From assembly GCA_051866815.1 (NCBI GenBank), contig JBJDXS010000058.1, positions 31,706 to 95,705 on the forward strand: a stretch of 64,000 bases of DNA. Reading direction: 5' to 3'. Shown here piece after piece: positions 8,262-35,825 of the stretch (within the stretch, counting starts at the first letter, position 1; the number at the start of each line of letters is the position of its first letter). The translations under genes were made by a program, and so were the position numbers. This stretch comes from Candidatus Onthomonas sp. (GTDB lineage: Bacteria > Bacillota > Clostridia > Oscillospirales > Oscillospiraceae). Below the pieces are notes generated by a model, which ran no database searches, was not told the origin of the DNA, and worked only from the letters and a program-made list of their open reading frames with translations.

Positions 8262-8284
8262 GCAGGGGCGCACATCGTGCGCCC
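8262..8284 (+). repeat. REP-like hairpin repeat, copy 1 (GCAGGGGCGCAC-ATC-GTGCGCCC)
   Basis: 8-bp GC stem identical to the copies inside the RAYT gene (32609, 32785). One loop base differs and the head is GCAGGG instead of GTAGGG. Confidence 0.75.
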
Positions 8285-29710: not shown

Positions 29711-30434
29711 GGACAAGCCGGCTCCTCCGGAGCCCCGGCCCAAGCGGGAGCCCAGCATCCACACCGGACATCGCCAGCGGGTCAAGGCCCGCCTCCTGGA
29801 GCACGGCGGCCAGCAGCTGGAGGACTATCAGCTGCTGGAGCTGCTGCTCTTTTACACCCATCCCCGGGGGGACGTGAATCCCCTGGCTCACCGGATCATC
29901 AACCGGTTCGGCAGCCTGAAGGCTGTGCTGGACGCCTCTCCGGACGAGCTGAAGGAGGTGGTGGGCGTCTCCGACAACACCGCCGCCCTGTTCCGGCTGT
30001 GCTACGAGGTGATGCTCCGCTACCAGCGCTCCACAGTGGGGCCGGGCATGCTGGTCCGCTCCACCGAGGAGGCGGGGGACGCCCTGCGGCCCTACTTCCT
30101 GGGGGCAAAGGAGGAGATGGTCTACCTTCTGTCGGTGGACAGCAAGGGCAAGCTGCTGGGCTGCGACCTGATCTCCACGGGCTCGGCGGACGCCGTGCTG
30201 CTCAACCAGCGGAAAATCGTGGAGCGGGCCATCAGCCGCCGGGCCAGCCAGGTCTATCTGTCCCACTGCCACGTCTCCGGGCTGGCCTGGCCCTCCCGGG
30301 ACGACATCTGGTCCACCCGCCAGCTCAGTCAGGCCCTCCGGCTGCTGAATATCCGCCTGGTGGATCATCTGATCTTCTCCGATGGGGACTACGTCTCCAT
30401 GGCACAATCCGAGCTGATGGAGGAAACCATTTGA
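29697..30434 (+). CDS. radC: RadC-family (UPF0758, JAB/MPN-like) protein
   Basis: HRQRVKARLLEHG...LEDYQLLELLL...FGSLKAVLDASPDELKEV (HhH) plus a C-terminal MPN-like domain (SHCHVSG...PSRDD). Overlaps the pyrE end by 14 nt. Confidence 0.8.
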   Translation: MEPDKDKPAPPEPRPKREPSIHTGHRQRVKARLLEHGGQQLEDYQLLELLLFYTHPRGDVNPLAHRIINRFGSLKAVLDASPDELKEVVGVSDNTAALFRLCYEVMLRYQRSTVGPGMLVRSTEEAGDALRPYFLGAKEEMVYLLSVDSKGKLLGCDLISTGSADAVLLNQRKIVERAISRRASQVYLSHCHVSGLAWPSRDDIWSTRQLSQALRLLNIRLVDHLIFSDGDYVSMAQSELMEETI

Positions 30435-30506
30435 CATAGAACGCCCGTTCTGTTACAATGCTCCTGTACACAGATTTTGCGGTTTTTTCTCCTGCGGAGG
30501 TGTCCT

Positions 30507-32477
30507 ATGCCCAACTTTCAGGTGGTCAGTGAATACCAGCCCAGCGGCGATCAGCCCCAGGCCATCCAAGCCCTTGCCCGGGGCGTGGAGCTGGGGCTGG
30601 ACGAGCAGACGCTGCTGGGCGTCACCGGCTCCGGCAAGACCTATACTATGGCCAAGGTCATTGAAGCGGTCCAGCGCCCCACCCTGGTGCTGGCCCACAA
30701 CAAGACCTTGGCCGCTCAGCTGTGCAGCGAGTTCAAGGAGTTTTTCCCCAACAACGCGGTGGAGTACTTTGTCTCCTACTACGACTACTACCAGCCGGAG
30801 GCCTACATTCCCCATACAGACACCTTCATTGAGAAGGACGCCTCCATCAACGAGGAGATCGAGCGGCTGCGCCACAGCGCCACAGCCGCTCTCTTTGAGC
30901 GCCGGGATGTAATTGTGGTGGCCTCTGTCTCCTGCATCTACGGCCTGGGCGACCCCATCGACTACAAGAACATGGTAATTTCCCTGCGCACCGGCATGGA
31001 GAAGCCCCGCAACGAGCTGCTCCACAAGCTGGTGGAGATCCGCTACGAGCGAAACGACATCGCCTTCGAGCGCAACACCTTCCGGGTTCGGGGGGACACG
31101 GTGGACATCTACCCGGTCTATTCCAAGGACCACGCCATCCGGGTGGAGTTCTGGGGAGACGAGGTGGAGCGGATCGCCGAGATCAACGCGGTCACCGGCG
31201 CCCCAACCCGGATTCTCAACCATGTGGCCATCTACCCCGCCAGCCACTATGTCACCACCAAGGAGAAGATGGAGCGGGCCATCAGCGAGATTCAGACGGA
31301 GCTGGAGGAGCGGGTGAAGTTCTTCCAGAGTCAGGACAAGGCCATCGAGGCCCAGCGCATCCAGCAGCGGACGGAATACGATATCGAGATGATGCGGGAG
31401 CTGGGCTACTGTACCGGCATCGAGAACTATTCCCGGGTCATCTCCGGCCGGCCGGCAGGTTCCCCTCCCATGACCCTGCTGGACTACTTCCCCAAGGATT
31501 TTCTTCTCTTTATCGACGAGAGCCACGTCACTTTGCCCCAGGTGCGGGCCATGTACAACGGCGACCGGGCCCGAAAGACCAGTCTGGTGGACTACGGCTT
31601 TCGGCTCCCCTGCGCCTTTGACAACCGGCCCCTGAAGTTTGATGAGTTCGAGCAGCGGCTCAACCAGGTGATCTACGTCTCCGCCACCCCGGGAGAGTAT
31701 GAGCGCAGCCGCTCCGGCCAGGTTGTGGAGCAGGTGATCCGTCCCACCGGCCTGCTGGACCCCCTGGTGGAGGTGCGGCCCATCGACGGGCAGATCGACG
31801 ACCTCATCGGCGAAATTAACCTGCGGGTACAGCGCAACGAGCGGGTGCTGGTCACCACTCTCACCATCAAAATGGCGGAGGACCTCACCGCCTACCTTCA
31901 GAAGTCGGGCATCAAGGTGAAATATATGCACCACAACGTCCAGACCATCGAGCGCACCGAGATCATCCGGGATCTGCGCCTGGGCAAGATTGACGTGCTG
32001 GTGGGCATCAACCTGCTCCGGGAGGGCCTGGACATGCCGGAGGTCTCCCTGGTGGCCATTCTGGATGCGGACAAGGAGGGCTTCCTCCGCAGCGAGACCG
32101 CCCTCATCCAGACCATCGGCCGGGCCGCCCGGAATGCCGACGGCCGGGTCATCCTCTACGCCGACACCATCACTCCCTCCATGGATCGGGCAATGACCGA
32201 GACGGCCCGCCGCCGGGAGATTCAGGACGCCTATAACCAGGCCCACGGCATCGTCCCCAAGACGGTGGTCAAGTCGGTGCGGGAGCTGCTGGAGATCTCC
32301 AAGGCGGTGGAGGAGACCGAGACCCGGAAAAAGCGGCCCCGCCGTCTCTCCCCGCAGGAGAAGGAGGCGGAGATCGCCCAGCTGGAGAAGCAGATGAAAG
32401 AGGCTGCGTCCCGGCTGGAGTTCGAGCTGGCCGCCGCGCTGCGGGATCAGATCATCGAGCTGCGGGGCGGGAAGTGA
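30507..32477 (+). CDS. uvrB: Excinuclease ABC subunit B
   Basis: [17 protein letters not shown] and a C-terminal UVR motif (AAALRDQI). Start at ATG 30507, after GGAGGTG. Confidence 0.96.
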
Positions 32478-32478
32478 G

Positions 32479-32991
32479 ATGGAGCGGGATGGATTGCCGC
32501 AAAGGAAATCGCTGCGGCTTAAGACGTTTGATTACAGCGCACCAGGGTACTATTTTGTGACAGTATGTGTCAAGAACAGGGAATGCTTATTTTGTTATCG
32601 CCAACCGCGTAGGGGCGCACATTGTGCGCCCGTTTCCCCTGTCAAATTCCAGCCAACGGAAATCGGAAGCATTGTCGACAACGCAATTAAACGCATCCCT
32701 GTCCATTATCCATCTGCCATGGTGGAAAAATATGTGATTATGCCCAATCATATTCATTTGATTCTGGTTCTGTCCGGCAACGACGGGCGCACAATGTGCG
32801 CCCCTACGACCTCTCGCATCATTCATCACATGAAGGAATACGTCACAAAGCGTCTGCATTACTCCATCTGGCAAAAATCCTATTACGACCACATCATCCG
32901 CGACGAGCAAGACTTCCAGCGCATCTGGAACTATATCGACACCAACCCCCAAAAGTGGGAAGACGATTGTTATTACAAGGAATCTGATTGA
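32479..32991 (+). CDS. RAYT-like (REP-associated) IS200/IS605-superfamily Y1 HUH transposase
   Basis: 170 aa with the HUH motif MPNHIHLIL and a catalytic Tyr context [14 protein letters not shown]. Starts 1 nt after the uvrB stop and ends 2 nt before the uvrA ATG. Carries two internal REP copies. Confidence 0.8.
32609..32631 (+). repeat. REP-like hairpin repeat, copy 9, inside the RAYT CDS (GTAGGGGCGCAC-ATT-GTGCGCCC)
   Basis: Translated in frame as RRGAHCAP. Exact reverse complement of copy 10. Confidence 0.8.
32785..32807 (-). repeat. REP-like hairpin repeat, copy 10, inside the RAYT CDS
   Basis: Plus strand reads GGGCGCACAATGTGCGCCCCTAC, translated as GRTMCAPT. This is the exact 23-nt reverse complement of 32609-32631. 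Confidence 0.8.
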
Positions 32992-32993
32992 CT

Positions 32994-35825
32994 ATGCAGG
33001 ATCACATTTTTGTAAAAGGCGCCCGGGTGAACAACCTGAAAAACGTGGATGTCTCCATCCCCCGGGACAAGCTGGTGGTGCTGACCGGCCTGTCCGGTTC
33101 AGGCAAATCCTCCCTGGCCTTTGACACCATCTACGCTGAGGGCCAGCGCCGGTATGTGGAGAGCCTGTCCTCCTATGCCCGGATGTTTTTGGGCCAGATG
33201 GAGAAGCCGGACGTGGACTATATTGACGGCCTCTCTCCCGCCATCTCCATCGATCAGAAGACCACCTCCAAGAATCCCCGCTCCACCGTGGGTACCGTCA
33301 CCGAGATCTATGACTACCTCCGCCTGCTCTGGGCCCGGGTGGGCATCCCCCACTGCCCCAAGTGCGGCAAGGAGATCCGTCAGCAGACGGTGGATCAGAT
33401 TGTGGATCAGGTCATGTCCCTGCCTCCCGCCACCCGGATTCAGATTCTGGCCCCGGTGGTCCGGGGCCGGAAGGGCGAGCATCAGAAGGTGTTCGAGGAT
33501 GCCCGGCGCTCCGGCTATGTCCGGGTGCGGGCGGACGGCTCCCTCTACGACCTGACCGAGACCATTCAGCTGGACAAGAACAAAAAGCACTCCATCGAGA
33601 TTGTCATCGACCGGCTTGTCATCCGGGAGGACATCACCCAGCGGCTCACCGACTCCATCGAGACCGCCTCCGCCCTCTCCGGCGGCCTGGTGATTGTCAA
33701 CCTGGCCCAGGAGGACCGGGACCTGTCCTTCTCCCAGAACTACGCCTGCGAGGACTGCGGCATCTCCATCGAAGAGCTGACTCCCCGGATGTTCTCCTTT
33801 AACAACCCCTACGGCGCCTGCCCCACCTGTTCCGGCCTGGGCAGCCAGCTCAAGGTGGATCCTAACCTGATCATCCCCAACGACGGACTCTCTCTGATGG
33901 ACGGAGCCATCTCCGCCTCCGGCTGGAACAACGTCAAGGGAGACGGCATCAGCCGGATGTACTTTGACGCCCTGTCCGCCAAATATCATTTTAAGCTCAC
34001 CGAACCCTTCCGGGCTCTGTCCGAGGAGGCCAAGCAGGTCATTCTCTACGGCACCCAGGGGGAAAAGCTTACCCTCCACTACGACCAGCCCCGGGGTAAG
34101 GGCACCCTCTACCAGCCCTTTGAGGGCATCGTCCCCAATCTGGAGCGCCGCTATCGGGAGACCCAGTCCGACTCAGTGAAGCGGGAGCTGGAGCAGTGTA
34201 TGAGCGAGTGCCCCTGCCCGGAGTGCGGCGGCCGCCGGCTGCGGAAAGAGGCCCTGGCCGTCACGGTGGGCGGACTCTCCATCGACCAGGTCTGCGCGCT
34301 GCCGGTGGACGACGCTTTGGCGTTTTTTGACAAGCTGGAGCTGACCCACCAGCAGATGCTGATTGCGGAACGGATTCTCAAGGAGATCAAGACCCGGCTG
34401 GGCTTTCTGCGCAGCGTGGGCCTCCAGTATCTCACCCTCAGCCGCAAGGCGGGCACCCTCTCCGGAGGCGAGAGCCAGCGCATCCGGCTGGCCACCCAAA
34501 TTGGCTCCTCCCTCATGGGGGTGCTGTATATTCTGGACGAGCCCTCCATCGGCCTGCACCAGCGGGACAACGACATGCTGCTGGACACCCTCAAGCATCT
34601 CCGGGATCTGGGCAACACCCTGATCGTGGTGGAGCACGACGAGGACACCATGCGGGCCGCCGACTACCTCATCGACGTGGGCCCCGGTGCCGGCATCCAC
34701 GGCGGCGAGATTGTGGCGGCTGGCACTCCGGAGGAGGTCATGAACACCCCGGGGTCGATTACCGGTGACTATCTCTCCGGCCGCAAACGGATTCCCGTCC
34801 CCACCCAGCGGCGAACCGGCAGCGGGGAATATCTCACCGTCCGGGGCGCCCGGGAGAACAACCTGAAAAACATCGACGTGTCCATCCCTCTGGGCACCCT
34901 CACCGTGGTCACCGGCGTCTCCGGCTCGGGCAAGAGCTCCCTGGTCAATGAGATTATCCACAAGCGGCTGGCCGCCGACCTGAACCGGGCCAAGACCCAT
35001 CCAGGCAAGCACACTGCTCTGGAAGGGGAGGAGCATCTGGACAAGGTGATCTGTATCGACCAGTCCCCCATCGGCCGCACCCCCCGCTCCAACCCGGCCA
35101 CCTATACCGGCCTCTTCTCCGACATCCGGGATCTCTTCGCCTCCACCCAGGACGCCAAGGCCCGGGGCTACGGCTCCGGCCGGTTCTCCTTTAACGTCCG
35201 GGGCGGCCGCTGCGAGGCCTGCGGCGGCGACGGCCTGGTCAAGATTGAGATGCACTTTCTCCCCGACATTTATGTCCCCTGCGAGGTGTGCAAGGGCAAG
35301 CGGTACAACCGGGAGACGTTGGAGGTCAAATACAAGGGGAAAAATATCTGGGAAGTACTGGACATGACGGTGGAGGAGGGGTTAGAATTTTTCCAGCCTC
35401 TGCCCAAGCTGTACAACCGGATCAAGACCCTCTACGATGTGGGTCTGGGCTATATCAAGCTGGGTCAGCCCTCCACCACTCTCTCCGGCGGCGAGGCCCA
35501 GCGGGTCAAGCTGGCTACCGAGCTGTCCAAGGTCTCCACCGGCAATACCTTCTATATCCTGGACGAGCCCACCACCGGCCTGCACGCGGCGGACGTGCAC
35601 AAGCTGCTGGAGGTGCTGCAGCGGCTCACCGAGTCCGGCAACACGGTGCTGGTCATCGAGCACAATCTGGACGTCATCAAGACGGCGGACTACCTCATCG
35701 ACCTGGGCCCCGAGGGGGGCGCGGGGGGCGGCACGGTGGTCTGTACCGGCACCCCGGAGGAGGTCGCCGCCTGTCCCCGGTCCTACACCGGAAGGTATCT
35801 CAGGCCCCTGCTGGAGCGGGAATAA
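32994..35825 (+). CDS. uvrA: Excinuclease ABC subunit A
   Basis: [18 protein letters not shown], two ABC modules ([20 protein letters not shown]) and zinc-finger Cys pairs. The track start TTG 32988 overlaps the RAYT stop, so ATG 32994 is preferred. Confidence 0.96.

Follow-up and report, generated by a model that had tools for sequence, protein, structure and literature searches.

We report that a predicted repetitive extragenic palindromic (REP)-associated tyrosine transposase (RAYT) gene, located between uvrB and uvrA in a 64,000-nucleotide (nt) stretch of a Candidatus Onthomonas sp. genome (GenBank assembly GCA_051866815.1, contig JBJDXS010000058.1, positions 31,706 to 95,705 of the forward strand; referred to as the window), carries two inverted copies of the REP hairpin of its host genome inside its own reading frame. 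Comparison with related genes shows that the layout with two sites has been passed down within the gene family, that it is the REP DNA, rather than the encoded peptide, that is conserved, and that the hairpins co-vary with the REP family of each host genome. Our main interpretation, to which we give about an even chance, is that the intragenic REPs are real substrates linked to the gene of their enzyme, i.e. a REPtron without flanks, which would be able to act as a protected REP template.

REP hairpins inside the putative RAYT gene

The features of the gene, and the one extragenic REP of the same family in the window, are the following (positions are those of the window):

32479..32991, + strand: RAYT (TnpA_REP) gene, 170 residues, intact; assigned by the relationship to 4ER8 and the AlphaFold2 (AF2) model, NCBIfam NF047646 scoring below its cut-off
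32608..32633, + strand: intragenic REP site 1, foot GTAG at 32609-32612 and hairpin at 32613-32631, on the sense strand
32749..32757, + strand: HUH motif codons (H91-I-H93), from the alignment to 4ER8
32783..32808, - strand: intragenic REP site 2, GTAG foot and hairpin, on the antisense strand
32932..32934, + strand: predicted catalytic Tyr codon, Y152 in WNYIDTNP, from the alignment to 4ER8 (invariant column)
8262..8284, + strand: extragenic REP of the same family, intergenic, hairpin at 8266-8284, loop ATC and degenerate foot GCAG

The two sites form a 26-nt inverted repeat that is 100% complementary (32608-32633 and 32783-32808); its arms are separated by 149 nt and bracket the HUH codons at 32749-32757. 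Each arm consists of GTAG followed by GGGCGCAC-ATT-GTGCGCCC, that is, an 8-bp stem and a 3-nt loop. An earlier reading of the window from its letters alone (the sequence-only reading) had pointed to this exact inverted repeat around the HUH motif and to the 8-bp hairpin in each arm; both are there, and the repeat is 26 nt long and not 23 nt. The residues specified by site 1, RRGAHCAP (44-51), fall in the loop that connects beta1 to the first long helix; those specified by site 2, GRTMCAPT (103-110), fall in the beta3-alphaC loop ahead of the hairpin-binding helix, at a gap relative to E. coli TnpA_REP. The string GGGCGCAC-N3-GTGCGCCC occurs three times in the window as compared with 0.13 expected, and no shuffle reached three. 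The third occurrence is the intergenic one near 8262-8284, which the sequence-only reading had likewise described, with one loop base different (ATC) and an altered head (GCAG).

A census of the home genome (assembly of 1.97 Mb, 91.6% complete) revealed about 45 copies of GTAG-GGGCGCAC-N3-GTGCGCCC-G(CC)GTTT, among them 31 with exact stems and 8 convergent doublets spaced 40-49 nt start to start, and the palindromes are accordingly members of a real genomic REP family. The ATT loop of the RAYT gene is the most frequent loop variant among these REPs. REP stretches (26-31 nt) are the only parts of the gene that recur elsewhere in the genome. That the 199 nt from one REP through the core to the other might be a mobile element or REPIN in their own right was considered and rejected; the unit is without a second copy and its 149-nt interval is unique in the genome. 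Comparison of strains gave none of about 16 listed variants within the 52 arm bases, which is not significant alone (p about 0.1).

The home genome also contains other REP subfamilies (GGGCGATTC…, GGGGCCGTTC…, GGGCGGGGGC… and GGGCGCGC…), as against a single detectable RAYT: tblastn and the NF047646 search both gave one gene copy, and neither detected, in this 91.6%-complete assembly, additional RAYT paralogs that might account for these subfamilies.

As judged from sequence and predicted structure, the open reading frame (ORF) most probably represents an intact, single-copy RAYT (TnpA_REP, a Y1 HUH nuclease) that resembles subclass 2.4 by motifs and description. The NCBIfam model NF047646 (REP_Tyr_transpos) scores 66.5 bits, below its cut-off of 80, and the two loop insertions interrupt the match; no Pfam match was obtained for the protein at 1e-3, and several homologs bear a precomputed PF01797. 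With a profile built from 34 homologs, the best solved relative is E. coli TnpA_REP (4ER8, E 2e-9), and among PDB structures the AF2 model (predicted local confidence, pLDDT, 84) likewise matches 4ER8_A best (E 7.7e-8, TM 0.57-0.59), followed by the ISDra2, IS608 and IS200 transposases. In the alignment N90-H91-I92-H93 falls on H59-M60-H61 of 4ER8, while Y152 and N156, both invariant, fall on the catalytic Y115 and the metal ligand N119; the Tyr motif is YxxxN, unlike the YxxxQ of IS200, and a WQ motif is present. The identification as a RAYT-type HUH enzyme in the sequence-only reading is borne out by the HUH motif, Y152/N156, WQ and the match to 4ER8 in both sequence and fold. Its placing of the catalytic Tyr in SYYDHIIR is not; that segment belongs to the beta4 region, and homology gives Y152 in WNYIDTNP. 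Both REP-encoded peptides lie in low-pLDDT loops of the model that are insertions relative to 4ER8. An IS200/IS605 insertion sequence was considered and rejected, given the lack of a second gene copy, the YxxxN motif and the way in which uvrB and uvrA abut the ORF.

Conservation in the gene family and match to host REPs

For comparison 80 relative loci were fetched, encoding proteins 39-57% identical to that of the window and derived mostly from metagenome-assembled genomes (MAGs) of Oscillospiraceae, Acutalibacteraceae and other Clostridia. Inverted pairs were scored across 76 homologous genes, counting scores of ≥15 (cross-gene control, median 8; shuffles, maximum 12), and comparisons of stem types and of antisense frames were taken over 54 genes.

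A reverse-complementary pair around the HUH motif is present in 61 of the 76 homologs, and the arms keep fixed positions relative to the PNH codons, arm 1 at about -126 nt and arm 2 at +32 to +50 nt. Counted separately, a REP is present at site 1 in 56 and at site 2 in 61 of the 76. Nearly all arms open with GTAG-GGG and close with CCC-CTAC. The stems vary among genes, with at least 24 types recognised, and every type folds into a hairpin of 7-9 bp that is free of mismatches. The same stem type occupies both sites in 38 of the 54 genes, where the loops are mostly complementary as well; the remaining 16 have differing hairpins at the two sites, each again internally perfect. In 15 genes of the 54 the sites differ at one stem position and the partner base has changed with it. 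Exceptions to the layout are one paralog in which site 1 lies outside the ORF and another in which the orientation of the pair is reversed.

The frame in which the REPs are read varies. At site 1 the frame is GTA-GGG (VG...) in 51 genes and xGT-AGG (xR...) in five, that of the window included, and the sole frame that is not used would give TAG. At site 2 the frames are split 48 versus 13 and the resulting peptides are unrelated, e.g. GRTMCAPT and GGHGNPPLQ. Nucleotide divergence between homologs is 9.4% in the REPs compared with 21.9% in the rest of the gene, with synonymous divergence (pS) at 0.2-0.76 (median about 0.6) and the ratio of nonsynonymous to synonymous divergence (pN/pS) outside the REPs at 0.11-0.29. 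Since the reading frame of the REPs changes from clade to clade, and since they accumulate differences at less than half the rate of the rest of the gene, we regard the DNA and not the peptide as the conserved entity. The sequence-only reading had proposed to look among homologs for hairpin conservation at the nucleotide level beyond the need of the protein, and this is what we find at both places.

The hairpins also match the REPs of the genomes in which they reside. The type GGGACGATG-N4-CATCGTCCC was found in the four genomes with this hairpin in their RAYT (2, 3, 29 and 3 copies) and, with three copies, in one other genome, while GGGCGATC-NNT-GATCGCCC was found only in its four RAYT-carrier genomes (26, 14, 2 and 29 copies); the remaining tested genomes lack both. 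For four of these eight genomes, hardly any copy of the type exists besides the intragenic pair. Three of these four have same-type pairs, of which two are perfect over 27-30 nt and one shows a loop difference, and the fourth has different stem types at the two sites. On a RAYT tree computed with the REP-coded residues excluded, REP type is clustered, requiring 34 changes at site 1 (46.1 +/- 1.4 when shuffled) and 36 at site 2 (49.0 +/- 1.3 when shuffled).

The hairpin of a gene is also present in the flanks of its own locus at 25% of the loci, compared with 2.4% for controls. A genome of the same order (G034; loci L104-L110) has eight RAYT matches, with tandem REP arrays just after three of them, and each of the six full-length paralogs examined there has its own REP type inside or beside it; four of these six types were seen as families among the matches listed.

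The uvrB-uvrA address and its predicted SOS-box promoter

The neighbouring features are, in order:

30431..30459, + strand: predicted uvrB operon promoter, TTGACA-17-TACAAT, TG-extended, from a promoter scan
30438..30451, + strand: putative LexA (Cheo-type) box AGAACGCCCGTTCT, in the promoter spacer between -35 and -10
30507..32477, + strand: uvrB, with Pfam UvrB_inter, UvrB, Helicase_C and UVR
32994..35825, + strand: uvrA, with Pfam UvrA domains; start from comparison with the empty spacers of relatives

The likely start of uvrB is ATG 30507, which is preceded by GGAGG (the mechanical ORF opens at TTG 30477), and its stop is TGA 32475-32477. The RAYT ATG lies 1 nt past uvrB, and the RAYT stop at 32989-32991 is separated by a 2-nt gap from the uvrA ATG at 32994, in agreement with the coordinates of the sequence-only reading. 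The 17-residue stretch given for the start of uvrA matches MQDRIIVKGARANNLKN of relatives. The RAYT gene has a G+C content of 46-51% as compared with 60-67% in its flanks. Empty sites, whose existence the same reading had suggested should be checked, were found in five genomes of the genus (G016, G017, G001, G003 and G023), where the uvrB-uvrA spacer is 27-55 nt long, and the uvrA Shine-Dalgarno sequence AAGGAAT of these spacers corresponds to the last RAYT codons, K-E-S-D-stop (AAGGAA in the window).

Other species of the genus have a RAYT at the same address that is just 44-57% identical to that of the window, carrying GGGCGCAC in two genomes (G013 and G022), GGGCGACC in another (G024) and a different, imperfect REP in a fourth (G018). 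A C-terminal RAYT remnant is present at this locus in G009, and the ortholog in G004 (L116, G004:C1:2000-3000) is a pseudogene in the uvrB-uvrA spacer, in which a foreign REPIN, a doublet of GGGCGGCC-CTT-GGCCGCCC, lies right after site 2 and the ORF stops there. In other genera, four loci (L002, L062, L047 and L080) have uvrB (76-78% identical) directly upstream of the RAYT, and the REP types differ again. With RAYTs downstream of uvrB in several genera and with differing REPs, we conclude that the gene has therefore long been at this address while its hairpins changed. In summary, RAYTs are found at this site in several species and genera, and other genomes have lost the gene or retain it as a pseudogene.

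Additional observations concern the same locus. The gap between uvrB and uvrA is 2.4-3.0 kb in three genomes (G002, G020 and G041), and in five others the two genes lie on separate contigs; the spacer looks like a recurrent insertion site. The last ~42 residues of the window protein (window 32866-32991) are ~90% identical to those of P0077/P0002. Over its N-terminal two thirds P0077 is only ~35% identical, and the REP type there is a different one; contigs from metatranscriptomes, too, diverge from the window at 32869/32878. This jump in similarity and the contig breakpoints suggest mosaic alleles at the uvrB-uvrA RAYT locus. In L002 (3001-4005) the stop-to-stop RAYT frame continues into YbaK/EbsC-like sequence to give 335 residues in total, which may reflect either a gene fusion or a stop that was missed.

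With respect to expression, the promoter at 30431-30459 is the only plus-strand promoter-like site ahead of uvrA, and AGAACGCCCGTTCT is the sole GAAC-N4-GTTC in the window. The window scan gave no plus-strand terminator-like sites between uvrB and the RAYT gene or between the latter and uvrA. The home genome has a lexA gene (G000:C5:5839-6429) with AGAACGAATGTTTG, of the form GAAC-N4-GTTT, about 60 nt upstream. In Clostridioides difficile the uvrB operator is GAAC-N4-GTTC, of the same type and in the same position, and the lexA operator is GAAC-N4-GTTT (PMC4234289), a situation that is mirrored by both boxes of the home genome. Contigs from four pig-gut metatranscriptomes span the RAYT-uvrA junction with ~96% identity, where DNA carry-over is possible. 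The proposal of the sequence-only reading that the RAYT is embedded in the uvrBA transcript fits with the lack of an internal promoter or terminator in the scan, with the short empty sites and with these contigs, and we infer, on good grounds, that uvrB-RAYT-uvrA would be under SOS control. In the literature searched, which covered few subscription journals, we found nothing that links a RAYT to SOS, uvrB or LexA.

Possible roles of the intragenic hairpins and comparison with known systems

The RAYT in the uvrB-uvrA spacer is probably co-transcribed from the predicted SOS-box promoter. Its hairpins are presented one per DNA strand, convergent as in REPINs, within two segments encoding poorly ordered surface loops on either side of the HUH strand. 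If they are substrates of the enzyme, then, because hairpins inside the ORF are inseparable from the gene, enzyme and substrate would be inherited, transferred and changed as one unit. The REPtron would thus be folded into its own reading frame, an arrangement that would suit a gene without flanking non-coding DNA, and the intragenic copies may function as protected REP templates kept uniform by selection or by replacement mediated by the enzyme or by conversion. Upon DNA damage, the level of the enzyme and that of single-stranded substrate would be expected to rise together.

Several points weigh against this interpretation. Binding and cleavage of the intragenic hairpins by the enzyme are a prediction. 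The low divergence of the REPs could stem from gene conversion instead of selection, and the homolog pairs behind the divergence rates are non-independent. Some homologs (L048/L060, L043 and L065/L066) have no palindromes in loops of unchanged length, from which it follows that the hairpins are dispensable for the protein. In one genome (G046) the intragenic loop variant is not the most frequent genomic variant, which misfits a simple master-copy model. Carrier genomes are mostly MAGs, in which REP-rich regions are possibly under-assembled. Finally, the insertions of subclass 2.4, which lie in the beta3:alphaC loop, were regarded in their published description as peripheral and as unlikely to affect the protein (PMC6006769).

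The last view corresponds to an alternative that we consider somewhat unlikely, namely that the REPs are tolerated passengers, inserted in frame into two permissive ancestral loops by RAYTs acting near their own gene, functionless and kept uniform by conversion or repeated insertion. In favour of this, pLDDT is low in both loops, which E. coli TnpA_REP lacks, members without REPs retain the loops, and extra REPs or doublets have accreted in them (L021, L025, L052 and L078, and a threefold GGHGNP repeat in the site-2 loop of G034:C41). REP arrays accumulate beside RAYT genes, and the REPIN beside site 2 in G004 coincides with the truncated ORF. Passengers would not, however, be expected to keep fixed positions across relatives that are 40-69% identical, to have arms that are perfect, or different in the loop only, in three genomes almost without extragenic donors, or to evolve far more slowly than synonymous sites.

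The sequence-only reading had suggested autoregulation, or that the gene marks the ancestral source of the repeat family; both are conjecture. A further possibility is that the RAYT cuts and rejoins its own two REPs, with hairpin variants, and perhaps the whole REP-HUH-REP core, being swapped with genomic REPs, such that selection-protected masters in the ORF would (re-)seed the family and enzyme and target would switch type together, triggered by SOS through the uvrB promoter; we regard this as doubtful.

Autoregulation at the level of RNA is, in our estimation, very unlikely. Here the arms would pair as a 27-bp perfect duplex around the HUH core, or form two local hairpins, and thereby limit RAYT translation or draw a double-strand-specific RNase, keeping a dangerous nuclease low within the uvrBA transcript. 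In the predicted RNA fold of the gene both the minimum free energy and the centroid structures pair the arms (-90 kcal/mol, z = -7, 0/200 shuffles), and the identity of stem type, with mostly complementary loops, in 38 of 54 genes is in keeping with such pairing. The 16 genes with differing sites argue against it, as these have kept the local palindrome and the GTAG foot and not the long-range pairing, and an RNA switch would need no match to the genomic REP family.

That the REP-coded peptides (…GAHCAP… and GRTMCAPT) are hairpin-contacting specificity loops, target and reader being encoded by the same DNA, is hardly credible. The loops do directly precede the hairpin-binding helices of 4ER8 (R46; R78, K81 and K82), and five residues, G103, R104, A108, P109 and T110, vary little or not at all among the 34 aligned sequences. 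Against this, the frame differs by clade to give unrelated peptides (RRGAHCAP versus VGAxxxRP; GRxxxAPT versus GGHGNPPLQ), the loops are predicted to be disordered, and the insertion has been placed away from the DNA surface (PMC6006769).

Least probable of all, and barely conceivable, is an invertible cassette in which the 26-nt inverted repeats flip the 149-nt HUH core, silencing the gene or giving an alternative protein: perfect repeats flank the core and the inverted segment of the window is open in frame (minus-strand ORF 32587-32952), but that segment is open in just 5 of 54 homologs (mean 2.6 stops, no better than a control frame), and eight metagenome and metatranscriptome runs, compared as assembled contigs only and hence a weak test, gave no strand-switch joints. 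The antisense ORF itself (32587-32952, - strand, 121 residues) is open by chance, the frame being closed in 49 of the 54 homologs. The one contig joint that spans the arms (32632>32784, with 26 intervening letters of other sequence) was discarded, as it comes from an extragenic REP doublet of the usual kind at another place.

The case bears on two unsolved questions, the spread of REPs and the long-term match between RAYTs and REPs. A gene family with one predicted substrate copy per strand at fixed codons is a source of numerous natural pairs of enzyme and hairpin, with at least 24 types of hairpin, for work on specificity and strand transfer, and it may account for the few repeats found around some RAYT groups in surveys limited to flanks (PMC5581495). 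The placement between uvrB and uvrA behind a predicted SOS-box promoter, kept across genera, connects DNA damage and single-stranded DNA with REP processing in a way that can be tested.

Turning to known systems, the sequence-only reading took REPs to flank RAYT genes as a rule, which stands as the usual arrangement and is incomplete, as in-gene REPs have been published for subclass 2.4 (PMC6006769). In tnpA_REP genes of this subclass (Bertels Group 4), present mainly in Cyanobacteria and Bacteroidetes, in-frame REP insertions of variable length generally lie between HuH and Y, and there are flanking REPs also; the motifs are NH[IFV]H, WQ and YIxNNP, the median length is 194 residues and the REPs are of the GTAG-GGG type (Table S1 in PMC6006769). 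The window protein is like these in its NHIH, WQ and YIxxNP-type Tyr motif, in the GTAG foot and the three G-C pairs at the base of the stem (in nearly all 76 genes), and in that site 2 corresponds to the variable beta3-alphaC insertion. It differs in having YIDTNP (T for the consensus N) and 170 residues, the assignment being by motifs and description. Moreover, the pair is fixed here, with a sense REP upstream and an antisense REP downstream of the HUH motif, the window gene is without flanking REPs, and the layout is kept in a Clostridial clade.

The E. coli REPtron (yafM, 4ER8) shares the HUH motif, the Tyr and Asn on alphaD, a hairpin substrate with a GTAG foot and a single-copy, housekeeping-like gene. 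In E. coli, however, the REPs flank the gene, the stem is bulged, the protein has a C-terminal regulatory tail and both loops are absent, whereas the window gene has perfect 8-bp stems within the ORF. REPINs (PMC3116915) also consist of two inverted, convergent REPs, as do the 8 doublets of the home genome, but the intragenic pair is 172 nt apart, compared with 40-49 nt in the genomic doublets, and the 199-nt unit is single. In-frame GTAG REPs are tolerated in loops of unrelated genes, including uvrA and uvrB, in association with excision repair (PMC3733652); those cases are sporadic in their host genes, whereas in the present case the REPs reside in the gene for their own enzyme, at positions kept across the family.

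In the literature searched, a fixed convergent pair around the HUH motif, the changes of frame and a RAYT in an SOS-box uvrBA context are undescribed. In-frame REPs inside tnpA_REP were already published in 2018; the core phenomenon is in print, its function here is what we infer, and the value of the present case is that of a well-documented and well-characterised variant. What is added is the fixed, convergent two-site layout together with an SOS-box promoter, predicted to drive uvrB-RAYT-uvrA, kept across several genera.

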